Below, piece by piece: positions 10,643 to 64,000 of a stretch of 64,000 bases of DNA. A program made the position numbers and the translations under genes. The DNA lies in contig NW_024704742.1 of NCBI RefSeq assembly GCF_018977255.1, positions 115,260,001-115,324,000 on the forward strand, in the 5' to 3' direction. The first letter of the stretch is position 1. Each line of letters opens with the position of its first letter. Below the pieces are notes generated by a model. It was not told the origin of the DNA and ran no database searches. It worked only from the letters and a program-made list of their open reading frames with translations. The DNA is from Callorhinchus milii. Lineage: Eukaryota.

Positions 10643-12471
10643 TTATAAATATATAAAGAGGAAGAGGCTGTCAAAGGTAAATGTGGGTCCGCTACAGGCA
10701 GAGACGGGGGGAATTATAGTAGGGGACAAAGATGTGACAGAGTCATTAAACAAGTACTTTGCTACTGTCTTCACCTTAGAAGACACTGAAAACCTACCAA
10801 GAATAGAGGGGAACCAAGAAAAAAATGTTAGCGAGAAACTTGGGGGAATTAATATTATTAAAGAAATGGTTTTAGGTAAATTATCAGGTCTTAAAACTGA
10901 TAAATCTCCTGGACCCGATGGCCTACATCCTAGGGTTTTAAAAGAGGTGGCTACTGAGATAGTGGATGGCTTGTCTTTGATCTTCCAAAGTTCTCTGGAT
11001 TCTGGAATGGTTCCCATTGATTGGAAGATTGCAAACGTAACAACACTATGTAAGAAGGGTGGGAGAGAAAAGATGGGGAGCTATAGACCAGTTAGTCTGA
11101 CATCAGTGGTAGAGAAAATTCTTGCGTCCTAATTAAAGATGTCGTTATGGGATTCCTGGAAGACCATAACAAGTTTAGGCAGAGTCAATATGGTTTTACA
11201 AAAGGGAAGTCATGCTTAACTAGTCTTTTAGAGTTTTTTTTAAGATGTATCTAGCAGGTTAGATAAGGGGGAACCAGTAGATGTAGCATATTTAGATTTT
11301 AAAAAGGCATTTGACAAAGTGCCACACAAAAGGCTATTGGACAAGGTTAAGGCCCATGGGATTAATGGGAACATATTAGCATGGATTGAAGAGTAGCTAA
11401 CGGGTAGAAAACAGAGAGAGTAGGGATAAACGGGTCATTCTCGAATTGGCAGGATGTGACTAGTGGAATGCCACAAGGATCAGTGCTTGGGCCTCAGCTA
11501 TTTACAATTTACATCAATGATCTAGACGAGGACATTGAATGTAACGTATTTAAATTTGCAGATGACATTAAAATAGGTGGGAGAGTAAGCTCTGAGGATG
11601 ATGCAAAAAGATTGCAACGGCATATAGACAGGCTAGGGGAGTGGGCGAGTAGGTGGCAGATGGAATTTAATGTGGGGAAGTGTGAAGTTATTCACCTAGG
11701 TAGAAAAAATAGAAAAACAGATTATTTTCTAGAGGGGAAGAGGTTAGATAGTGTTAGTGTTCAGAGGGATTTGGGTGTCCTTGTACACCAGTCTCAAAAA
11801 GTTAAGTTTGCAGGTGCAGCAAGCAACTAAGAAGGCGAACGGCATGTTAGCATTCATTGCAAAAGGTTTAGAGTACAAGAGTGGGAAGTCTTGCTGCAAC
11901 TGTATAGGGCCTTGGTGAGACCGCACCTAGAATATTGTGTGCAGTTTTGGTTTCCTTATTTAAAAAAGGACATAGTTGCCCTAGAAGGGGTGCAGCGTAG
12001 ATTCACTCGGTTAGTTCCTGGGATGAGGGTCACTGACCTATGAGGATAGGCTGAATAAACTAGGGCTATATTCTCTAGAGTACAGAAGAATTAGGGGAGC
12101 TCTTATTACAACATATAAGATTCTTAAAGGGCTGGATAAAGTAGACACTGAGGGTCTGTTTCCCCTGGTAGGAGAATCTATAACCAGAGGTCACAGTCTT
12201 AAGAACAGAGTTGAGGAAACATTTCTTCACTCAGAGGGTAGTGAATTTATGGAATTCACTACCCCAGAAGGCTGTAGATGCTCAGTCCTTGAACATCTTC
12301 AAGGCTGAGACTGATAGATGTTTAAAAAATAGAGGGATTAGGGGATATGGGGATAGGGCAGGTAATTAGAGTTAGGTCTGAAGATCAGCCATGATCTTAT
12401 CGAATGGCGGGGCAGACTCGAGGGGCCGAATGGCTACTCCTGCTCCTAATTCTTATGTTCTTATGCTCTTA
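10643..12471 (+). mobile_element. CR1 LINE, 5'-truncated, disrupted ORF2
   Basis: [18 protein letters not shown] and FADD motifs with stops and frameshifts; (TTCTTATG)n tail; same family as 42525-45970. Confidence 0.95.
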
Positions 12472-12514
12472 TTTAGCAACCCTGGTCTGAGGAATAGCCC
12501 CAGTGTGTGTAGGA

Positions 12515-31814: not shown

Positions 31815-33012
31815 CATCATCAACCCCTCCCTGTCCACTGGCACTGTTCCATCCCCTTAAAAACAGCCATCATCATCACCCCTATCCTCAAAAAACCTTC
31901 CTTGGACCCATCCCTACTCTCAAATTACCACCCCATCTCCAACTTTTCTTTCCAAGCTCCTTGAACAAGTCGTTGCTTCCCAGCTTTACTCCAGGACTGA
32001 GCCCTGAAGAACATCATCCGCAGACATGGGGTCAATTTCCACATGTGGGGATGATACCCAACTCCATCTCTCTGCCCCCACCCTCGATTCCAGGACCACT
32101 GCTGTCCTGACAGAATGTCTGTCAGAAATCAAATCCTAAATGAGAGCTAACTTTCTACAGTTGAACATCAACAAGACCGAGCCCTGCTGAATGGCTCCCG
32201 TCAGCACCTCCACACCTCAGGCCCGACAGCATCACCATCCAGGGATGTACACTCCACCTCACTGAGCCAGTCCGGAACCTTGACATCTTGTTTAACTCTC
32301 AACTGTCCTTTCTACCTCACATCTATACCATGACCTGCTCTGCCTTCCCCCACCTCCACAACATCGCCTGGCTCCGCCACTGCCTCAGCCCTCAGGCCGC
32401 CAAAACTCTCATCCACACGTTCACCACATCTCGGCTCGACTATGCCATCTCCCTGCTTGTCGGCCTTCCCAACTCTTCCCTCCCCAAGCTGCAGATCATC
32501 CAGAACTCTGCAGCTCTTGTCCTCTCCTGCACCAGGCTCCGTGACCCCATCACCCCCATGCTCATCTGGCTCCACTGGCTCCCCATCCCCCAGAGGATAG
32601 AGTTCAAAATCCTTGTTCTCGCCTTCAAGATCCTCCATGGCCTTGCTCCTTCCTACCTCTGCGACCTGCTGACCCCATATAAATCTGTCCGCTCCCTCTG
32701 CTCAGCAGACCACAGCCTGCTCCACGTCTCTGCCCAGCCCTCCTCACCATCAGCAGTCCGGCTTTCAGCCTCTGCTCCCACCTTTTGGAACTCCATTCCA
32801 CATTCTCTTTGCTTCGCTCCCTCCTTTGCCTCCTTCAAGGCACGTCTCAAGACCCTCGTCTTTGACCATACCTTCAGCCACTTTCCTGCCCTCCACCCTC
32901 CTGATCCCAACCCCCTTGCTTGGATCCAAATCCCTGACTGTCCAGCGCCTTGTCACATCCTCTCTACATGAAAGGCGTTACACAAATATAGTTTTGTATT
33001 GCATTGTATTGT
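31815..33012 (+). mobile_element. L2-clade LINE fragment
   Basis: ORF 32288-32971 (SRLDY, LHWLPIPQRIEFK) with decayed RT upstream. Confidence 0.88.
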
Positions 33013-33689
33013 AAAATCAATGCAATATGAATTTCATCATTTTAAAAGATATAGAAGCAACGCTTCATTTCATTGATCAAAAATATTTATCTGTATCCTC
33101 ATTCTTTCTCAACGAAAAGCAACATAAGCAATGTTTGAGTACCAATTATTTTTACCATGAAAAACATATTTCACCCGAACAATGACCAGGGTCTTGTAAC
33201 AAGCAATTAATTTTTGTGCTGACGCATACAGTATTTAGCTGAACCCATGAGAGCTGTACAAAGGGCAGACAGGAATCACATCCAGAAACTATATCTATCT
33301 TGGACCTATTGTAAATATCAGCTGGCTGATCCCTTTGTCTAGACCTGTCTGCATACATGCTATGGACCTGCTACGATTTAAGGTTAAATAACTCTCACTT
33401 TATCCACCACAAAACAAAGTAACCAGACAACTATGCTGGATTATAGCAAGCTCGTTCAATTAGATCAGCCTCTGGGATTTTAATGTCTTCCCACAACAAT
33501 TTAGAAGTTTGTGTGATTGAACGTACTAAAAGCAGTGAGATGACTCAGGTATTTTCACAATGCTCTTTAGCACATTTATTCATATCCTGCAAAACAAGTG
33601 GCCCTGCATTGTCATGAGCAGACAATGTAAGAATGATCGAACGCTTTCCAATTACTAAGGTATTCCATTCAGACCTCTGTAGCACTAAT

Positions 33690-34402
33690 CTATGCGTTTA
33701 TCACATCCAGGCTTGACTACATCAACTCTCTGCTTGCTGGACCACTCAACAACAGCAAGAACAACAACCACCACAAATTACATTTGTATAGCACCTTTCA
33801 TGTCGGGAGGATGTACCAAAATGCTGGACCCAATTCCTCCCTACACAATCTGCAGATGGTTCAGAACTGTCTTTTCCCACACTAAGCTCTCTGAGTCTAT
33901 CACCACCATCCTCGCCCAGCTCCATTGTCTCCCCATACCCCAGCAGATTGTGTTGAAGATCCTTATTTCAAATCCCTCCACATTCTTGCCCCACCCTACT
34001 TGTGCAATCTCCTCAAACCATACCAATTTAACCACTCCCTTGTTTTAGCAGGCATCGGCCTGTTTTACGTCTCCTGCTCTAGCTACCCCATAATTGGTAG
34101 TCGGACAATCAGTTTATCCACCACAACTCTCTGGAATTCGATCCATCCCTCAACAACAACAACAAAATGACATTTATAAAGCACCTTTCACGTCGGGAGG
34201 ACGTCCCAAGGCACTGGACAGTCAGGAGTGGGGTTGGGTTGAGGGAAGGCAGAGAGACGGAAGGGCGACCAAAGGCATGATTGAAGAGGAGGGTCTTGAG
34301 ATCAGCCTTGAAGGAGGCAAGGGAGGAAACGAGGCGAAGGGACTGTGGGATGGAGTTCCAGAGTATGAGGGCAGAGAGGCTGAAAGCTCGGCCACCGATG
34401 GT
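33690..34402. mobile_element. Cluster of L2 fragments on both strands
   Basis: + strand decayed L2 interrupted by - strand L2 tails. Confidence 0.7.
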
Positions 34403-34651
34403 ATAAAAATAAAAAGAAGTTCTCCCCCCTTCCCCGCCCCCCCACACCGATAAAGGAAAATATCTCAAACAAATCCACTCACTACACTGCTGAACCACAC
34501 ATACATGTGTTAGGGTTTGATTTTGTCTTTATTATTTATAGAAAATAATAAAGCAAATCACTCATGACTTACGACTATAAGACTTGTATTACGACTTGTA
34601 TTCTATTTTTCTTCCTAGATAAGGATTTTGTTTTTAGCAAAATATACGACA

Positions 34652-35365
34652 CATTTACTGATCACTATTTGCTGATCACTATTTGGTGATCGCTATTTAC
34701 TAATCACTATTTGCTGATCACTATTTGCTGATCACTGTTTACTGATCACTATTTGCTGATCACTATTTACTGATCACTATTTGCTGATCACTGTTTACTG
34801 ATCACTATTTGCTGATCACTGTTTACTGATCACTGTTTACTGATCACTATTTGTTGATCACTATTTACTGATCACTATTTACTGATCACTATTTGCTGAT
34901 CACTATTTACTGATCACTATGTACTGATCACTATTTGCTGATCACTATTTGCTAATCACTGTTTACTGATCACTATTTACTGATCACTATTTGCTGATCA
35001 CTATTTACTGATCACTATTTACTGATCACTATTTACTGATCACTATTTGCTGATCACTGTTTACTGATCACTATTTGCTAATGAATGTTTACTGATCACT
35101 ATTTGCTGATCACTGTTTACTGATCACTATTTGCTGATCACTGTTTACTGATCACTATTTGCTGATCACTGTTTGCTGATCACTATTTACTGATCACTGT
35201 TTGCTGATCACTGTTTACTGATCACTATTTGCTGATCACTATTTGCTGATCACTGTTTGCTGATCACTGTTTACTGATCACTATTTGCTGATCACTATTT
35301 GCTGATCACTATTTGCTGATCACTGTTTACTGATCACTATTTGCTGATCACTATTTGCTGATCAC
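34652..35365. repeat. 14-bp minisatellite, about 51 units of T[A/G]TTT[A/G]CTGATCAC
   Basis: Directly visible tandem array, 714 bp = 51 x 14. Confidence 0.97.
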
Positions 35366-35670
35366 GATCATCGTTATTGTCAACCGTCGCAGGTCAGTGT
35401 CCCCCCAGTTGAGCACCAGCTGCTGCCTCTCTCTCCCTCTGACTGACCCACAGCCCTCCCCACACAGCTGCGTCCTGTGCCGCACAGGTCCTGAGCAGCA
35501 ATAAGCCGAGCGCTCCCTCTCGGCGCTTCCCTCGAGAGCTCCTCTCTGTCGCGAAGAATTAAAGCCATGGATTTTCCAGGAGCAAATTGGAAGTTTTTTT
35601 TTTTGGTGGTGTTGTTGTTTTTTTTTTTTTTCCTTTTCCTTCTTGGACTTGTCGAGCAATGCGCTCATCC

Positions 35671-35678
35671 TGACGTCA
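35671..35678. promoter_or_regulatory. cAMP response element (CRE) in CARTPT promoter
   Basis: Perfect palindrome TGACGTCA about 65 bp upstream of the TATA box; mammalian CART promoters have a functional proximal CRE. Confidence 0.85.
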
Positions 35679-35742
35679 ATGTGTCCGTGTCCCTGATTGA
35701 TTTCCGAGAGGGGCAGTCACTTATTGGAAAGGTGCCGTTCGC

Positions 35743-35750
35743 TATATAAA
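35743..35750 (+). promoter_or_regulatory. TATA box of CARTPT (inverted CCAAT at 35723-35727)
   Basis: TATATAAA about 65 bp upstream of the ATG, in a CpG-rich stretch (~35370-36080). Confidence 0.85.
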
Positions 35751-35804
35751 GCCCCAGTGTGGCGCTGGAGGGCGTGAAGCCCCGCGTCTGCCACCGGTTT
35801 GAGG

Positions 35805-35825
35805 TTCAGCACCATGGAGAGCTCC
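35805..35825 (+). promoter_or_regulatory. RE1/NRSE (REST binding site) overlapping CARTPT start codon
   Basis: TTCAGCACCATGGAGAGCTCC matches 18 of 21 positions of consensus TTCAGCACCACGGACAGCGCC with canonical half-site spacing. Confidence 0.8.
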
Positions 35826-35954
35826 CGCCTGTGTCTCCTCACTCTGCTGAGCGCCGCTCTGCTCCTGCACTCCCACTGCCAGGAATCGGACCTGGAATCC
35901 AGATCCCTGGACCACTCCTCAGCCAAAGAGGACTCCTCTCAGGAAAAGGAGCTG
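35814..35954 (+). CDS. CARTPT: CART prepropeptide exon 1 (signal peptide and pro-region)
   Basis: Kozak accATGG; MESSRLCLLTLLSAALLLHSHCQESDLESRSLDHSSAKEDSSQEKEL; donor gtgagt. Confidence 0.96.
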
Positions 35955-36481
35955 GTGAGTTCCGATCAGCCTTCTCCTCCTCTGCTGCCCTCACACCGTT
36001 TTCTCACCCTTACCCCACAGCAGACAACTGCTTTCCGTGTGAAAGCGCTGCAAATCCCTTTAACCGTTTCGGCTGTTTCGGGTTAACAAAACAAAATTGA
36101 ACAAATGCAAGTGATTTAGTATTGTCGTGGACACAAACTGAAAATAAGGTATTTTGTAAATGTTGCCCCCTCCCCCCCCCACCCCCCCCCCCCAAAAAAA
36201 CACAAAGTTATTATAACATTGAAGCACTCCATTCTGCCCAAATAGTTTTTTTTTCTAAATGGATGTTAGGAAATGAGAACAATAAACGGTAATCTCAGTG
36301 CGATCAGGTCAGTGGGAAACGAGGGCTGTGTGAAATGTGATCATCCTTTTCATGGAAACCTTTGGCGCAATGTAGGAAACTTTCTCGTTTTGCTGAGCAG
36401 GATTTGATCAATTCGCACTGCATACCCTTCCCACGGGCTTTGCACGATTGCACATTGTAAGAGGCTTTGGTTTTCACACAG

Positions 36482-36565
36482 ATTGAAGCTTTGCAGGAAG
36501 TTCTGGAGAAACTCAAAAGCAAGAGGATGCCAACCTATGAGAAAAAGTTCGGCATGGTCCCAATG
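36482..36565 (+). CDS. CARTPT: CART prepropeptide exon 2
   Basis: cacacag|ATT...ATG|gtaagt; IEALQEVLEKLKSKRMPTYEKKFGMVPM with KR and KK convertase sites. Confidence 0.97.
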
Positions 36566-37412
36566 GTAAGTTGTATCCAGTTAATGTAGGTAAGGTCATA
36601 TAAACAGCATTACAGTACTCTTACTTAACGTATTTTTTACATTTCCTGCACATATACAATTCTCTGTATTCTCTCTATATAACAAACTTCTTTTTCTCAA
36701 TACGAACAAAACTAATTTCATGAACCAAGTTATATTTCTAAATCACTCTACACAGACGCAGTGTGAGAAAACACCCAATAGATCTAAAATGATCACTAAT
36801 GTAATGTCACAATGCAGCTTTGGCTTATAATGGGTCTCGAGTCTTTCTGTCTCTCGCTCTGCTCTCTCTGTGCGAATGTTTGTTTCAATATTGTGCAAAC
36901 AGACTTTTTTAAGGTACGAGATTAAAATGAAGTGAAACCTTCTGAGCAAAGAGAATGATTATGATTTAATAATTTAGGAATTCATTGCAGTAAGCCTTTA
37001 TTTTGCATCCTTTATTATTATTTTCCTTTACAAACGTATCCAATTATTCAAGGTGGGAAAATATTTTACACCAAGAAGGAACACCTAAATATATCAGCAA
37101 ACATAATTTACAGTAACATTTAGTCACCAGCCACAAATGTATTAGAGACTGTCACGTTTTAAGTCGGAACAGGCTGAGGAAGATAGAACATTCATCTTTG
37201 TTTGACTCATCACTGATATATAACTACTGTTGAAACTAATGATACATGATAAAAATCCAGAGATAATGTCCAGAAAAAATAAACTGTTCTTAGTTTTGGC
37301 AGTAGCATTAAATTCAGATCAATTCATGCTTTCGTATTCACAGGTAAAATATTTTTGCTGGTGAGACACAAGGAAGGAATAACTAACATTTCTTTTTACT
37401 TTAAAAACACAG

Positions 37413-37520
37413 TGCGATGCTGGGGAACAGTGTGCAGTGAGGAAAGGAGCCAGAATTGGGAAACTCTGCGACTGCCCCAGAGGAACCTTCTGCAACTCAT
37501 TCCTTTTGAAATGTTTGTAG
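37413..37520 (+). CDS. CARTPT: CART prepropeptide exon 3 (six-cysteine domain)
   Basis: aacacag|TGC...[38 protein letters not shown], the CART signature. Confidence 0.98.
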
Positions 37521-37893
37521 AGAACAAAGATCACACACATAGGCACTCATAATAAAAACATTGCTTCAAGAACATCCGACTGCTTGAAATTAATCTCAAA
37601 CCAAACATATTCTACTTACCAAAAAAAAGGATGGTGTAAAAAAAAAGGTTATTTCTACTGCAATGTAGATCTAGTGTGGGAAATATGAAATAAGTAGGAG
37701 ATGATGTTTTCAGCATAACAATGTTGTGTACAGTTGCATTTTTGTTTCTTATTGGTGACAAGTGTTTCTGCCTGTATTAGTTAATGAGTTTGAGTTTACT
37801 CACAATATTCTAAGTGTTTAACTTCCTTGTCACAGAGGTGTGACCTGTATTTATAAAACTGTATTTTTGTATTTAGAATGCATTAAACCTACT

Positions 37894-37899
37894 AATAAA
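37894..37899 (+). terminator. Candidate CARTPT polyadenylation signal (proximal alternative at 37551-37556)
   Basis: AATAAA preceded by TGTA/U-rich elements and ATTAAA, followed by U/GU-rich sequence. Confidence 0.6.
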
Positions 37900-38171
37900 A
37901 TCAGTTATAGGCATCCCTTGCCTGTCAGAAGCTTGTTCATTTTGTATTGCCCACAAAGTATACAGTCAATTCACTTTATAGTATATTCTCTGAAGCGCTT
38001 TGAGACGTCTTGAAGACGTGATAAGGCGCTATATCAAATGCTAGTTTTTTTAATTTCAATCTCTTTAATGTAAAACTGCCCATAAAACAGACTAGTTAGA
38101 ATAACAGCTTTTCAAATCTTTATATTTAATAAAAATAGGCATTTAAACAATATAAAAATAATGACGACGAC

Positions 38172-40780
38172 AACAATAATAATCCTTTATTTGTTCTTGT
38201 TGGGAGGTCAAATCAAAGTGCCTCACAGAATTTTACTGTGAAGTGGAGTGACTGTGTGTTTGTAGGTGAATGGGGCAACCCTTTTAAACACAGCAATGTA
38301 CCACACACAGCCATGAAGTGAAGGACTAATTTTTGTTTGGGGAATTGTAGGTCAGGACACCAGGAGAAACTCTTTTCTTGTTTCAAGTAGTGTTATGGGA
38401 TCTTTAGCAGATGGGTTCTCGGATTAATGTCTCATTCGAAGGATGGCATCTCTGATGGTTCAATCCCCTCCCTCCACCACCCCAGAGCACTGCATTGAAG
38501 TGTCAACTTGGACCGTGTGAGTTCTAATCCCTATGTGGGCTTGAACCACATAGTTAGAGTCAGAGTTAGAGTGATATGTGTAAATGAGCTAGGGTAACAC
38601 CTAAGATGAACAAACTTAGACATTTGCAACATGATCAGACTTTGTATTGAATAAATAGCCTCCAAAATATTAAAAATACAAATTTCTACAGCAACATTTT
38701 GCCTAGAGCATTTTGAAATACCAAATTGACAAAAATGTACATATTAAAATGTAGTTATATATTTATTAATAAGGAACAACCAAAACAGCAACATAGATAG
38801 AAGGTATAAAAACAATACATACATGGTACTTCACTTAACAAAACGTATGGATTCATGTATACTTCAATCTTACTCAGTATTCATTAGATAAAAATATATT
38901 TCTTTTAACAAAAACCTTCCAGTTGTATCACTCCAATCTGAATCAGCTTTAAAGCTGCAGTCAGTAAATCTTACACAATAAATACGTAGAAGCTAAAGAG
39001 ATTCATTTGAAAGAGCTATCTTCTTGTGTTTCTTTGTGAGTATGTTACATTTCTGATAGTGGTTGGAGATCAAGTAACATATATTTACTTGCTATCAGTT
39101 TCGAGCTGTGATGTGCACCTTTCTGCTGGCTCTATGTTTATAATAATAATCATGATCCTTGCCTTTCACATCAAAAGGATACCTCAAAGAATTTCACAGG
39201 ATTCATGTTGGGAGTAAACACAATAGCCAATCTGAGCCATAAAATATAGCCATGAAATGAATGACCGATTTTACTTAGGAGATTGTTGGTCAGGACACTA
39301 GGAGAAATTTTATTTTCAAATAATGCCATGGTACTGATAACGTCCACCTGAACAGGCAGATGGGACCTTGGTTTAATACTTCTTCCAAAGCATGGCACCT
39401 CCAACAATACAGCACATCCCCAGCACTGGAATGTCACTCTACAGTTCAAAGTCCTGACATGGGGCTGTGAAGAACGGAAGTCACTGGTGTAAAATTGCAA
39501 AATGACCCGGCTACAAAGAGCTAAATAGTGTCTGAACAATTTTCCTAGGAATAATCCTAATCTCAATGAATGAATGAATGAAATTAAATCCTCATTTCAT
39601 CATACCTTACTCAAAAATATTCTTTAGCAAGGCTTCAAAACAGTTAAACTGGTTCACTCAGTTATCCCTTCCTTTTACAATTTGCCTGAAAGGGTGGTCG
39701 AGGCCGATTCGATAACTACTTTTAAAAACGCGGTGGACGGGTATTTGAGGAGGACGGGTTTGCAGGGTTATGGGGAAAGGGCTGGGGAGTGGGATTTACA
39801 TTAATTGCTCTATTCAAAGAGCCGGCACAAACTTGATGGGCCGAATGGCCTCTTTTTGTTCTGTACGATTCTATGATTCTAGGTTTTAAACCCTAAGCTT
39901 CATATCCTCCGAGTAGAACAACTACTGATGTATCTTGTCTTTTCTCTCATTCCTTGGAAACTCCATGCTATTAGTAATTATAATAATATAATCATAATAC
40001 CTCCATTTGATATAGTTCCTTTCATGTCAGTAAGATGTTTCAAAGCACTTACAGGATTTACTGTAAAGTGTAGTGACTTTGTTTTACGGGCTACCACAGC
40101 AACCAATTTGCACACAGCACTAACAATGCAATACTAAATTACATTTGTATAGTGCCTTTCACATTGGGAGAATGTCCCAAGGTACTGGACATTCAGGGGG
40201 TGAGAAGGGGTGCGAGGTTGAGATAAGGAAGGGTGTAAGGCAGGGAGGGTAGGAGGGTGGCCGAAGGCACGGTCGAAGAAGAAGGTATTGAGACATGCAT
40301 TGAAGGAGGCAAGGGAGGGAACGAGGTGAAGGGAATGTGGGATGGAGTTTCAAAGGGGGAAAGGTTGAAGGCCTGACTGCCAATGGTGGGGCAGGCTGAG
40401 CGGGGAACGTGGAGCAGGCCAGAAACTGCTGAGTGAAGGGAGCGGACAGGTTGTTAAGGAGTTAACAGATCACAGAGGTTTTAAGTGAATAACCAATTTT
40501 ATCTGGGAATTTGTTGGTATAGTAACACAAGAAGAAACTCTCTTCTCTTATTGAATAGTGCAGTGGGATCTTTAACATTCACCTGAACAGGCAGAGTTGG
40601 AGCCTTGGTTTAATATCTCATCTGATGGATGGGAATTCCACAATGTGGCGCTCCCCAGCACTGCACCGAGTATCAGCCCGGACTATGTGACTTTGAACTA
40701 TGTGACAGTGTGGGCTTGAACGCACAATCTTCTGATTCAGAGGCAAGAGTGCAACCAACTGAGCCAGGCTGACACTGCTG
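38172..40780 (-). mobile_element. Cluster of DeuSINE-like SINEs (38172-38570, 39138-39490, 39975-40778) with a CR1 tail (+, 39680-39880) and a nested L2 (40135-40478)
   Basis: Repeated Deu-like cores and tails; L2 splits the third SINE. Confidence 0.7.
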
Positions 40781-41799: not shown

Positions 41800-42240
41800 C
41801 CCAATCGATTCAAGAATTCAAGATCCTCATCCTCACCTACAAGGCCATTCACGGCCTTGCTCCCTCCTACCTCTCCGACTTACTATCCCCCTACTTACCC
41901 GCCCGTACCCTCCGTTCCTCTGGCTCCGGTCTGCTCCACATTCCCCGCCTCGACCGCCCTACCATCGGTGGCCGGGCCTTCAGCCTCCCAGCCCCTAGGC
42001 TCTGGAACTCCATCCCCCAGTGCCTTTGCCTTGCTTCCTCCCTTTCCTCCTTCAAGGCCGGTCTCAAGACCTTTCTCTTTGACCGTGCCTTCAGCTCCCC
42101 TCTTGACTCTCTACCCCCTCCTCACTCCCTCCCTTCCTTCCCCCCTGCTCGGGTCCCGACCCAATTGTCCAGCGCCTTGGGACGTCCTCCCGACGTGAAC
42201 GGCGCCCTATAAATGAAATCTTGGTGTTGTTGTTGTTGTT
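41800..42240 (+). mobile_element. L2-clade LINE 3' end, young
   Basis: Near-identical to rc of 1572-2010 and to 63525-63963. Confidence 0.9.
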
Positions 42241-42524: not shown

Positions 42525-45500
42525 TATTCACTCGAGCCGAGAGCCCAGAGTGAGCTACGTCCGGAGTGAGGCGAGGCCAGAGTGTGAGGGAATTTGGTGA
42601 GAGTGGGAATTAGGTGCAGGGGGGGAAGTGGGGGCAGGCTATATAAATTTGTATCTATATAAAGTTTGTGAAGATGATGTGGCAGGTAAACTGCGAGGTC
42701 TGTCACATATGGGAGTCAATGGAGGGCACCTTAAGTCCGGGCGACTTCTTCTGCCGCAATTGTCTGGAAATCAGAGAGCTCCAGCTGAGAGTAGCTGAGC
42801 TGGAGTCTCAGGTGGAGACACTGCGCAGCATTAGGGATGGAGAAAACTTCCTGGACAGCTTTATCCTGGAGCCGGACACTCCCCTGAGTCCAAGGAAGAA
42901 GAATGTAGCAGCGACGGACATGACTGGGTGACAGTCAGGCGGGCAGGCAAGCGTTCCAGAAAGAGAGGGGCTGAAGAATCCCAGACTTTAGCCTTGTCTG
43001 ACAGGTATGAAATATTGGCAACTTTTCCAAGGGAATGGGCTCCACCTAAATAGGGCTGGGACAAATATCCTGGCTACGCGAATAAATAGGGAGGTAGAAA
43101 GGACTTTAAACTACTAAGGGGGGGGGGGGGGGGGTAAAAACATAGTAAAGTATAGTCCACCACAGTTAAACTTGAGATCAACAAAAGCAAGAGAGCAGAT
43201 TAACAAGGGAGAAACGCAAAGTGTGTCAAGCAGGGAAAGGAAGTACAGTGATAGAGTGCTGGTGAATAGGGTTAATAGCCGGAAGTCAGAATTAAGGGCG
43301 CTATATCTGAATGCACAAAGCATTCGTAACAAGATAGATGAATTAGTTGCACAAATAGAGACAAACCGGTATGATCTAGTAGCCATCACCGAGACATGGT
43401 TACAGGGTGATCAGGGATGGGAACTGAATATTCCCGGCTACGTGGTATATAGGAAAGATAGGCGATGTGGTAAACGAGGAGGGGGAGTGGCCCTGCTAAT
43501 AAAGGATGGGATAAAAACAGTAGAGAGGAAAGATTTTAAATCTGAAAAGCAAGATGTAGAGTCAGTATGGGTAGAGATACGTAACTTCAAGGGGCAGAAA
43601 ACTATAGTGGGAGTAGTTTATAGACACCCAAACAGTGGTCAAAGTATCGCTCAAGGTATAAATCAAGAGATTAGTGGAGCATGTAGCAAAGGAAAGACAC
43701 TAATTGTGGGTGATTTTAACCTGCACATAGACTGGGACAACCAAATTGGGAAAGGTAACATAGAAGAGGAGTTTATAGAATGTATTAGAGATAATTTTCT
43801 AGATCAATATGCTGAGGAGCCGACCAGGGAACAAGCCATATTAGACCTTGTTTTGTGTAATGAAACAGGGCTGATCAGCAAACTGGAACTTAAGGCTCCT
43901 CTAGGGCAAAGCGATCATAATATGATGGAATTTAGCGTTAAGTTAGAGAGGGAAGTAGTTAAGTCTGAAGCAAAAGTCTTCAATTTAAATCGAGCCAACT
44001 TTGCTGGTATGAGAGAGGATTTAGCCAGAATAAACTGGGAGACTAAACTTAAAGATTTGACGGTAGACCAGCAATGGCAGACATTCAAGGAGATAGTGCA
44101 AAATTCCCAACGAGCACATATTCCTTTGAGGAATAAGAATGCCATGGGAAAGGTGGTGCAGCCATGGCTAACTAGAGCAGTTAGGGAAAGTATCAAATCA
44201 AAAGAAAAAGCCTATAAAAAAGCGAAGATGAGTAGTAAACACGAGGATTGGGAGAACTTTAGGGAACAACAGAGGAGGACCAAAAAATTGATCAAGAGGG
44301 AGAAAATAGATTACGAGGGCAAACTAGCAAAGAACATAAAAACAGACTCCAAGAGTTTTTACAAATATATAAAGAGGAAAAGGCTAGCGAGGGTGAATGT
44401 GGGTCCATTACAGGCAGAGACCGGAGGAATTATAATAGGGGACAAAGACATGGCAGAGTCATTAAACAAGTATTTTTCTACAGTCTTCACCGTAGAAGAC
44501 ACTGGAAACATACCAAAAATAGAGGACCAAGAAGACAATGTTAGCGAGCAACTTAGGGAGATTAACATTAGTAAAGAGATGGTTCTAGGTAAATTGTCGG
44601 GTCTTAAAACCGATAAATCCCCTGGACCGGATGGCCTGCATCCGAGAGTTTTAAAGGAGGTGGCTACTGAGATAGTGGATGGCATGTCTATAATCTTCCA
44701 AAAGTCTGTGGATACTGGAAAAGTTCCCATTGATTGGAAGATTGCAAACGTAACTCCACTATTTAAGAAGGGTGGGAGAGAAAATAGGGAAAACTATAGA
44801 CCAGTTAGTTTGACGTCAGTTGTAGGGAAAATTCTTGAGTCCTTAATAAAAGACGTAGTTATGGGATACCTGGAAGACCATAAAAAGATTAGGCAGAGTC
44901 AACATGGCTTTACAAAAGGGAAGTCATGCTTGACTAACCTTTTAGAATTTTTTGAGGATGTATCCAGCAGGTTGGATAAGGGGGAACCAGTAGATGTGGT
45001 ATATTTGGATTTTAGGAAGGCATTTGACAAGGTGCCACACAAAAGGCTGTTACTCAAGATCAAGGCCCACGGGATTAATGGGAAAATATTAACATGGATA
45101 GAAGAGTGGCTATCGGGTAGAAAGCAGAAAGTAGTGATAAACGGATCATTCTCGAATTGGCAGGATGTAACTAGTGGAGTGCCACAAGGATCAGTGCTTG
45201 GGCCTCAGCTATTTACCATTTACATCAATGATCTGGACGAGGACATTGAATGTAATGTGTCTAAATTCGCGGATGATACAAAACTAGGTAGAAGAGTGAG
45301 CTTTCAGGATGATGCAAAAAGATTGCAACAAGATATAGATAGGCTAGGGGAGTGGGCAAGTAGGTGGCAGATGGAATTCAATGTTAGCAAGTGTGAAATT
45401 ATTCACCTTGGTAGCAAGAATAAAAGAACAGATTATTTTCTGGAAGGGGAGACGTTAGAGGGGGTGCAGCGTAGATTCACTCGGTTAGTTCCTGGGATGA

Positions 45501-45970
45501 GGGGACTGACCTATGAGGATAGGCTGAATAAACTAGGGCTGTATTCTCTAGAGTACAGAAGAATTAGGGGTGATCTTATTGAAACTTATAAGATTCTTAA
45601 AGGGCTGGATAATGTAGACACTGAGGATCTGTTTCCCCTGGTAGGAGAATCTATAACCAGGGGTCACAGTCTTAAAATTAAGGGTCAGCCTCTTAGAACA
45701 GAGTTGAGGAAACATTTCTTCACTCAGAGGGTAGTGAACTTATGGAATTCACTACCCAGAAGGCTGTAGATGCTCAGTCCTTGAACATTTTCAAGGCTGA
45801 GACTGATAGATTCTTGAAAAATAGAGGGATTAGGGGATATGGGGATAGGGCAGGTAATCAGAGTTAGGTGAGAAGATCAGCCATGATCTTATTGAATGGC
45901 GGAGCATTCGAAGGGCCGAATGGCCTATTCCTGCTCCTAATTCTTATGTTCTTATGTTCTTATGTTCTTA
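42525..45970 (+). mobile_element. CR1 LINE with both ends present and two internal deletions
   Basis: 5' UTR, ORF1 remnant (CxxC...CxxC, leucine zipper, GLHLN), ORF2, (TTCTTATG)n tail at 45941-45970. Confidence 0.95.
43172..45769 (+). CDS. CR1 ORF2: APE endonuclease plus reverse transcriptase, open frame with in-frame C-terminal deletion
   Basis: ITETW, GDFN and SDH endonuclease motifs; [12 protein letters not shown] and FADD RT motifs; no stop over 865 codons; start codon uncertain. Confidence 0.85.
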   Translation: MRSTKAREQINKGETQSVSSRERKYSDRVLVNRVNSRKSELRALYLNAQSIRNKIDELVAQIETNRYDLVAITETWLQGDQGWELNIPGYVVYRKDRRCGKRGGGVALLIKDGIKTVERKDFKSEKQDVESVWVEIRNFKGQKTIVGVVYRHPNSGQSIAQGINQEISGACSKGKTLIVGDFNLHIDWDNQIGKGNIEEEFIECIRDNFLDQYAEEPTREQAILDLVLCNETGLISKLELKAPLGQSDHNMMEFSVKLEREVVKSEAKVFNLNRANFAGMREDLARINWETKLKDLTVDQQWQTFKEIVQNSQRAHIPLRNKNAMGKVVQPWLTRAVRESIKSKEKAYKKAKMSSKHEDWENFREQQRRTKKLIKREKIDYEGKLAKNIKTDSKSFYKYIKRKRLARVNVGPLQAETGGIIIGDKDMAESLNKYFSTVFTVEDTGNIPKIEDQEDNVSEQLREINISKEMVLGKLSGLKTDKSPGPDGLHPRVLKEVATEIVDGMSIIFQKSVDTGKVPIDWKIANVTPLFKKGGRENRENYRPVSLTSVVGKILESLIKDVVMGYLEDHKKIRQSQHGFTKGKSCLTNLLEFFEDVSSRLDKGEPVDVVYLDFRKAFDKVPHKRLLLKIKAHGINGKILTWIEEWLSGRKQKVVINGSFSNWQDVTSGVPQGSVLGPQLFTIYINDLDEDIECNVSKFADDTKLGRRVSFQDDAKRLQQDIDRLGEWASRWQMEFNVSKCEIIHLGSKNKRTDYFLEGETLEGVQRRFTRLVPGMRGLTYEDRLNKLGLYSLEYRRIRGDLIETYKILKGLDNVDTEDLFPLVGESITRGHSLKIKGQPLRTELRKHFFTQRVVNLWNSLPRRL

Positions 45971-62517: not shown

Positions 62518-63366
62518 ATAAGAATGCATTGCGGTTATGTCCTGCAGCCAGAAATTCTACCCACAAAAATACAAAGTCACTGCGCTTTACAGTAAATCCT
62601 GCAAAGCCCTTGGAGATGTCCTCCTAATATGAAAGGCTCTATATATCAAATGTAAGCATTATTATGCTGATACAGGCGTGATGGGCCGAATGGCCTCCTC
62701 CTATTGCTGTAAATTTCTATGATTCTATTCTTATTATCATACATTTCAGGGCTGTTTGTCAGACATTGCTGTTTTCAAATTGGCTCCCACATTTATATAC
62801 TAATACACATTTACTGTATATAGCTTTACAGAAATGACATGAAGCACTACAGATTTTCTCAACATTATAGATGCTACATCAAATTCTAGGAGAATTAGTA
62901 TTATTTTCACTCTTGAATTTCAACAATATTTCCTGAAGTGATGTTATACTGTCATCTGCTGGCAGCAGCAGGAAGTGATCCATAAGTGTTCGGAATTCAC
63001 CCACAAGAAAATGTAATGAGAAAGAATTAAGAAGCAAAAAGAGAAGCAAGACAAGTTTACTTCTTCCACTATAATTTGAAGCTTTACTGTTAGATTTACT
63101 TGAAGCAAGATCTTTTGTTGGTTTGAAAAAGCCTTTCTGGAAATATTGCATCAAATCTGAAAGTCGACAACAACTTGCATTTATGTTACACCCTTTGCAC
63201 AGAATAGCATCTCAGAGCACTAGTTGTACAGTAGATGGAGATAGGATAGTTGACTTAATTTTACCTGGTATTAATGTTTGCCATTTATGTTCATTACTAG
63301 AAACTCTAAGCCCTCTGGGTTTGCAAATTCTAGTGTTGGTTTAACAGGATGGTTAATGTTTTACCT

Positions 63367-63963
63367 CAAGGCTGGACTCTCTCCTCGCCGGCCTTCCCGG
63401 CACCTCCCTCCACAAGCTGCAGGTCATTCAGAACCCTGCAGCTCATGTACTGTCCCGCACCAGGCTTCGGGACCACATCACTCCCACCCTCGCTCGCCTC
63501 CACTGGCTCCCCATCCCCAGAGGATCGAATTCAAGATCCTCATCCTCACCTACAAGGCCATTCACGGCCTTGCTCCCTCCTACCTCTCCGACCTACTATC
63601 CCCCTACTTACCTGCCCGTACCCTCCGTTCCTCTGGCCCCGGTCTGCTCCACATCCCCCGCCCCAACCGCCCTACCATCGGTGGCCGGGCCTTCAGCCTC
63701 TCAGCCTCTAGGCTCTGGAACTCCATCCCCCAGTGCCTTCGCCTTGTCTCCTCCCTTTCCTCCTTCAAGGCCGGTCTCAAGACCTTCCTCTTCAACCGTG
63801 CCTTCACCTCCCCTCTCGACTCTCTACTCCCTCCTTGCTCCCTCCCTTCCCTCCCCCTGACCATTTCCCCCCTACTCAGGTCCCGACCCAACTGTCCAGC
63901 GCCTTGGGACGTCCTCCCGACGTGAAAGGCGCTCTATAAATGCAATCATGTTGTTGTTGTTGT
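63367..63963 (+). mobile_element. L2-clade LINE 3' end, young
   Basis: Near-identical to rc of 1572-2180; (TTG)n tail. Confidence 0.92.
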
Positions 63964-64000
63964 TTACGCTTCGCTCACAGAATGCACTGTACAATATATT

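Follow-up and report, generated by a model that had tools for sequence, protein, structure and literature searches.

A 14-bp minisatellite with a forkhead-like core beside the CART promoter of Callorhinchus milii

The CART gene of Callorhinchus milii, the elephant shark, is preceded by 51 tandem copies of a 14-bp unit, most of them matching the forkhead consensus TRTTTRY, and the array ends at the upstream edge of the promoter. It lies in a window of 64,000 nucleotides, the whole stretch of DNA analysed, to which all positions refer. The best explanation of the observations is a locus-specific minisatellite, grown by slippage on the promoter side of the gene, in which the forkhead match is incidental; a probability of roughly 0.55 is attached to this reading. 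The alternatives, which allow the array an effect on CART or a history of selection, are weighed below against the variant map, the promoter and the nearest known systems.

The array and its units

The array runs from 34652 to 35365 on the plus strand as 51 units of T[A/G]TTT[A/G]CTGATCAC, each exactly 14 bp long, 714 bp in all with no insertion or deletion; the original prediction, which gave about 51 units, had the coordinates, the unit and the count right. TRF reports it with a period of 28 or 42 (score about 1090), and among the 10 TRF rows for the window it is the sole array with more than a few minisatellite units. Sequences within two mismatches of the unit occur 55 times in the 64 kb against 2.29 expected, 50 of them inside the array and 5 outside, and there is no second array of this unit within the window; the repeat is far beyond chance. 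Its composition is 34% GC with one CpG. Minisatellites are built of head-to-tail units of about 7–100 bp, extend over hundreds of bases to kilobases, and show interspersed variants, block structure and polarity; the array, at 51 x 14 bp, has each of these properties.

Variation is concentrated at unit positions 2 (A in 36 units, G in 15) and 6 (G in 27, A in 24). Only 10 substitutions fall elsewhere in the whole array, in keeping with the earlier remark that other changes are rare, and 44 of the 51 units are one of four exact 14-mers. Sorted by first heptamer, 22 units read TATTTGC, 12 TGTTTAC, 10 TATTTAC and 3 TGTTTGC, with four singletons; all four variants recur, as first noted, but the fourth is rare. 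TRTTTRY is matched by 48 units, always on the plus strand, and corresponds to the canonical forkhead site RYAAAYA as given in the available text of PMC8501956, so that the identification of the units as forkhead motifs stands. A second description splits the unit into two related heptamers, CT[A/G]TTT[A/G] and CTGATCA, which in TGTTTAC-type units are alike in 5 of 7 letters. The period of the array is nonetheless 14: self-identity rises from 0.53 at lag 7 to 0.89 at lag 14, and lies at 89–91% across lags 14, 28 and 42.

The map of unit types is typical of repeat turnover, being what the block copying of a few early variants leaves behind. TATTTGC-type and TGTTTAC-type units are adjacent 19 times, in either order, a number reached in 0.1% of 20,000 order shuffles (p about 0.001); the alternation of these two types as 28-bp dimers, noticed at the outset, is thus confirmed. 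Units with A at both variable positions are biased toward the 5' end (mean unit 18, p 0.036) and those with G at both toward the 3' end (mean unit 40, p 0.042), and the two positions are linked (Fisher p 0.005, for units that are not independent of one another). The lack of indels, together with the identity at lags 14, 28 and 42, suggests that turnover has been recent. Small local duplications, seen by eye, flank the array on both sides, at 34570–34602 (a partly repeated word of 11–13 bp) and at 35360–35372 (a 6-bp near-repeat), and hint at slippage-prone DNA. We infer a slippage origin, a young age and a lack of selection for the array.

The CART gene and its promoter

The placement of the array just upstream of a CART promoter, as first proposed, is borne out by the gene model. 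Coding exon 1 (35814–35954, plus strand) supplies 47 aa of signal peptide and pro-region; exon 2 (36482–36565, plus strand; 28 aa) and exon 3 (37413–37520, plus strand; 35 aa and the stop) both match the Pfam CART family PF06373, with E values of 3e-9 and 1.4e-20. The predicted protein is identical at 110/110 residues to the C. milii CART record, and at 97–103 of 110 to 20 other full-length chondrichthyan records, one further fused model failing to align in that register. The public Scyliorhinus torazame model GCB61876.1 fuses CART to a thiolase N-terminal domain; the fusion is probably an error of the gene model, the tail being missing from a second model of that species.

The proximal promoter and 5' leader (35366–35813, plus strand) are CpG-richer than the array, which abuts the upstream edge of the promoter: the counts per 200 bp are 9 and 12 at 35401–35800, against 0 at 34801–35200. 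A full palindrome, TGACGTCA, at 35671–35678 is taken here to be a cyclic-AMP-type element (CRE), and a TATA box (TATATAA, plus strand), called from sequence only, follows at 35743–35749. From the 3' end of the array it is 305 bp to the CRE, close to the 300 bp originally estimated, 377 bp to the TATA box and 448 bp to the ATG; by the latter two distances the array falls within the roughly 1 kb upstream of the start that defines a promoter VNTR. The window holds one other full CRE, at 44811–44818 inside a LINE reading frame, and that one is probably incidental.

An RE1/NRSE, the site for REST, overlaps the start codon at 35805–35821 on the plus strand and matches exactly the published degenerate consensus (taken from the relevant part of PMC4430910); the scan with this consensus gave one match against 0.05 expected, and 5 of 100 shuffles also reached one. 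The residues FST stand just before the initiating Met in this CART and in two other chondrichthyan models with upstream extensions (Hypanus and Scyliorhinus torazame), which suggests that the left half of the site is old; the RE1 at the CART start codon may be conserved across chondrichthyans. Mammalian CART is controlled by CREB and REST, the latter reported to repress CART against CREB (Zhang et al. 2012, as cited in PMC4596026), and the elephant-shark gene likewise combines a full CRE with an RE1 that fits the consensus exactly and overlaps the start codon. The passage on this control in PMC4596026 mentions no minisatellite. The CRE and RE1 layout beside the array is the better-supported regulatory feature of the locus.

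Other repeats lie farther off. Dispersed fragments of an L2-like LINE family are found upstream of the array at about 33750–33830 and 34150–34403, the last some 250 bp away. Further copies of that family lie at 1572–2184, 41814–42237 and 63363–63964, with many shorter pieces, some 92–95% alike. An 883-codon open frame with endonuclease and reverse-transcriptase domains, by our reading a CR1-like LINE, occupies 43118–45766, and a second copy, 87–90% identical, lies at about 10643–12472. For structured RNA, there was no Rfam match in 33000–39500.

The forkhead match: chance and constraint

Outside the array, TRTTTRY occurs 144 times in 63,200 bp, or once per 439 bp; the 48 matches within 714 bp are dense enough to resemble a homotypic cluster, as judged by consensus matching only. 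The optimal form TGTTTAC occurs 12 times in those 714 bp, against once per 5.7 kb outside. The match nevertheless arose once and was then copied 51 times; its 48 instances are not independent, and the null must be framed to suit. Random 14-mers (300,000) were drawn from the window, and a transition share of 0.67 was taken from repeat-pair alignments. The motif is present in 3.2% of such seeds, because TRTTTRY occurs once per 439 bp in this DNA. Once it is present, 42% of seeds keep it through two random variants; retention of the motif is therefore unremarkable.

The position of the variants is another matter. Both common variable sites of the array fall on the degenerate purines of TRTTTRY, and neither falls in the 7-bp spacer; among random motif-bearing 14-mers, 1.5% have both variable sites inside the motif and tolerated. 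When 50 synthetic motif classes of like shape were allowed, 24% of random arrays kept some motif in all four variants, and both variants were placed on tolerated positions at about 1% per array, a figure whose weight turns on how many arrays the genome contains. This placement is the best point of the original prediction, and it is mildly surprising.

Two neutral explanations of the placement failed or proved weak. If TpG and TpA were hypermutable, variants would be expected at such sites; the 12 repeat-pair alignments, which partly overlap, gave 55 changes at 911 sites (0.060), against 0.049–0.052 for A and G contexts, and this cause was rejected. Expansion driven by hairpin formation was rejected as well: a fold z-score of -3.5 vanished against arrays of shuffled units, 18–34% of them folding equally well. 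At positions 2 and 6, and nowhere else in the unit, all three substitutions leave the folding energy unchanged, a post hoc observation of little weight.

The rare substitutions speak to constraint in another way. Four of them fall among 255 fixed core positions (three motif-breaking, one tolerated) and 6 among 357 spacer positions; core and spacer decay alike, and nothing indicates that the core has been preserved the more strictly. If forkhead binding were all that was selected, the spacer would be free to change, but the core takes rare substitutions just as often.

On the slippage reading, a 14-bp seed bordering the CpG-richer CART promoter on its upstream side would have expanded by replication slippage or unequal exchange; two early A/G transitions would have been carried along and spread as blocks, which would account for the dimers of 28 bp and for the drift in unit types from 5' to 3'; and the seed, which by chance would have held a forkhead core, would thereby have had that core multiplied by copying. 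In open DNA, some units may well be occupied by forkhead proteins. The array would have been neither built nor kept for such binding, its effect on CART would be small or none, and CART would more likely be under the control of the CRE, TATA and RE1 elements. The original prediction carried its own caveat, that A/G transitions spread by slippage could give the same pattern neutrally, and this caveat fits at least as well as the insulin control it was meant to qualify.

Promoter-side repeats that act, and a possible effect of the array

A first alternative keeps the neutral origin and adds a real effect. The nearest known counterpart is the human INS VNTR (IDDM2), described in the accessible part of PMC3012191: like the shark array it repeats a variant unit tens of times in front of a gene for a metabolic peptide. 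Its unit is 14–15 bp long, its copy number runs from 26 to over 200, it lies about 365 bp upstream of the basal promoter, and it changes reporter output about 2–3-fold. The INS repeat is G-rich and quadruplex-forming and is bound by AIRE, and both its length alleles and its effect on reporters are proven; the shark array, in contrast, is AT-rich, nearly CpG-free and forkhead-like. More broadly, VNTRs of the human genome are over-represented in CpG islands and in the 1 kb upstream of genes, and a link to expression was reported for 187 genes (PMC8096271, available portion). The shark array is like that promoter-proximal class in having a unit of at least 7 bp, a position within 1 kb upstream, a CpG-richer neighbour and a factor consensus in the unit. 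By these anatomical tests it is a promoter-proximal minisatellite, a known kind of element.

On this first alternative, forkhead factors (FoxA, FoxG1, FoxK, FoxO or others) might bind the array and shift the level or tissue range of CART modestly, in a length-dependent manner like that of the INS VNTR, with no special link to insulin. The RYAAAYA match in nearly every unit favours this, as do the 12 units with the optimal core, a sequence to which FOXO3 binds largely irrespective of what flanks it (PMC4770209, in the part available), and the likeness in geometry (365 bp there, 377 bp here; units of 14–15 and 14 bp). The scarcity of CpG also favours it, because methylation cannot then block the forkhead sites directly. 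Twelve optimal sites 305 bp from a CRE could matter whatever their origin. Against this stands the base rate: the 187 genes with an expression link compare with common VNTRs in or near over 2,173 genes, in one cell type (PMC8096271, available portion). An effect of this kind is doubtful, though it is the strongest of the alternatives.

Among titles and abstract starts of open-access papers, no forkhead-site minisatellite at a promoter was found, nor any description of the shark CART array, the second being a weak claim. Vertebrate-type promoter methylation in C. milii is confirmed by PMC5437953, whose available text holds nothing on the CART locus, and the available text of PMC4362833 is without mention of CART.

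Possible selection for a forkhead array

A second alternative takes the placement of the variants at face value. The whole 14-bp unit would be constrained as a composite element, a forkhead core with a TGATCA partner, in which only two purines are free to vary; the mixture of strong (GTAAACA) and weak (GCAAATA) sites, together with copy number, would then determine the extent to which forkhead factors, possibly FoxO under IGF or insulin control, stimulate or damp an appetite neuropeptide. We regard this as improbable. Its more committed form, in which selection has built a FoxO or FoxA array, constrained over core and TGATCA partner alike and tuned by copy number, that makes CART responsive to insulin and feeding, is more improbable still. 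The confinement of variation to two degenerate purines is what constraint on the whole unit predicts, and the single orientation throughout points the same way; the lack of excess conservation in the core points the other.

The units differ in their fit to FoxO itself. In vivo ChIP for FOXO3 and FOXK2 gives a consensus whose second motif letter is T rather than C, with GTAAACA as its optimum (PMC4770209, in the part available). Measured against it, 22 of the 51 units fit (TRTTTAY), 12 of them optimally, and 26 (TRTTTGY) do not; the commonest unit is the poorest FoxO site, because it carries C where that consensus has T. FoxA factors accept the C variant more readily.

In a mouse POMC line IGF1 raised Cartpt mRNA, which favours the selected array, and insulin did not, which counts against it, as does the report from the same work (PMC11949690, accessible sections) that FOXO1 binding was shown at the Igf1r, Insr and Irs genes, not at Cartpt. 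Likewise, fasting lowers CART in many teleosts, whereas in the winter skate brain CART was unchanged after two weeks' fasting (both from the available part of PMC5126056). The proposal that the array gives CART an insulin- or nutrient-responsive control thus finds no support here: the majority unit lies outside the FOXO3/FOXK2 consensus, the core is no better kept than the spacer, and brain CART in the winter skate did not respond to two weeks of fasting.

Spacing is a further difficulty. FoxP3 and other FoxP proteins assemble as ladders on TnG microsatellites, which like the shark array are head-to-tail forkhead sites in a tandem repeat (10.1101/2023.07.12.548762, from the part available). 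The ladder needs 8-bp paired sites and tolerates 11–13 or 21–22 bp between rungs, not 14–19 bp, and in that source it is seen for the FoxP family and not in the ChIP sets of FoxA1, M1, J2, J3, Q1 or S1. The shark array presents a single site per 14 bp, outside the spacing that the ladder accepts, and was rejected as a repeat of that type; intolerance of 14–19 bp spacings in FoxP3 assembly also weighs against a selected FoxO or FoxA array.

Possible routes other than forkhead binding

The array might act, if at all, through a non-forkhead factor, through nucleosome positioning, or by spacing the promoter from the L2-like fragments. The hexamer TGCTGA, a putative Maf half-site, follows an AT-rich run in 23 units, and the TGATCA palindrome is present in 47; the dispersed fragments do end at about 34403, some 250 bp upstream. 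The position-6 variant, however, removes TGCTGA in about half of the units, and hairpin stability is not special. Such routes are very unlikely.

The same dimer in bacteria

One unit type of the shark array has a counterpart far outside animals. Bacterial genomes of several phyla gave 82 stretches that match two units in tandem, metagenomes gave at least 120, and two scrambled controls gave none; those controls lack the heptamer substructure, so that they show only that the 82 matches are not generic and do not speak to how prone the unit is to expand in vertebrates. The dimer TGTTTAC-TGATCAC accounts for all 82 bacterial and 117 of 120 metagenome matches listed, in short arrays with a 7-bp period. 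Exact two-unit matches occur in Microcystis, Bacteroidota, Chloroflexota, Lentisphaerae, Planctomycetota and others, Microcystis making up 32 of 80 bacterial-genome rows by hand count among the matches listed. The bacterial and metagenome arrays mix CTGTTTA, CTGATCA and CTGATTA and reach up to 46 heptamers. None of the 202 bacterial and metagenome loci among the matches listed contains the commonest unit of the shark array.

These bacterial arrays are likely kin of the TAACTGA family, to judge from a likeness within one or two letters. TAACTGA direct repeats are described in Beggiatoaceae, Cyanobacteria and Bacteroidetes (PMC4679880, available text), and polymerase slippage has been put forward as a hypothesis for the excess of heptamers in bacterial genomes (PMC4692102, available text). 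The TGTTTAC-TGATCAC unit of the shark consists of two heptamers found in such arrays; TAACTGA-type repeats, however, have a 7-bp period and mixed order, are short and prokaryotic, and are without the shark's commonest unit. The shark array was rejected as one of them on its low identity at lag 7 relative to lag 14 and on its junction with a chondrichthyan promoter. The resemblance is read as convergence. Bacteria are not known to have forkhead factors; the dimer in their genomes means that tandem optimal forkhead cores exist without any forkhead factor, and it says nothing direct on function in the shark.

The junction was sought in other sequencing runs. The search returned 13 rows, all under one organism label, of which 6 contained part of the stretch: four runs of one study held 0.45–0.58 of its words, and two further runs, at 0.10 and 0.04, were left uncounted. 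Runs X3 to X6 were compared over the promoter side and the last two units of the array. A contig of X4 (depth 7) joins those two units to the promoter without a difference and ends 5 letters past the compared stretch, close to 35336, where a 31-letter word graph must branch; the promoter parts covered in X4, X5 and X6 are likewise free of differences. Coverage of the junction is confined to this one run of four, X5 stopping 36 bp short of the array, X6 covering 12 of 30 bins and X3 giving no contig, gaps that count neither for nor against the junction. The contigs are short-word ones, that of X4 ending inside the array, and yield no length for it.

That the array is an artefact of assembly, contaminating bacterial DNA or a heptamer repeat acquired horizontally from bacteria, a reading which draws on the fact that one unit type equals two heptamers common in bacterial arrays, is largely refuted for the 3' junction by the X4 contig, and is extremely improbable overall given that the commonest shark unit is in none of the 120 metagenome and 82 genome loci listed, and that bacterial arrays mix their heptamers, with at most 8 consecutive 14-mers, whereas the shark array alternates strictly for 51 units.

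Implications

An ordinary array would join the known promoter-side minisatellites and be a candidate polymorphic marker beside CART. It would also be a caution, as a copied 14-mer easily mimics a designed factor array, the same dimer occurring in bacteria. If the array is functional, it would offer a clean natural test of the effect of site number and site strength on forkhead output, and would show a repeat altering the control of a neuropeptide gene in a vertebrate that evolves slowly. Should the composite-element account prove true, a chimaera would carry a natural 51-site forkhead titration on a single promoter.
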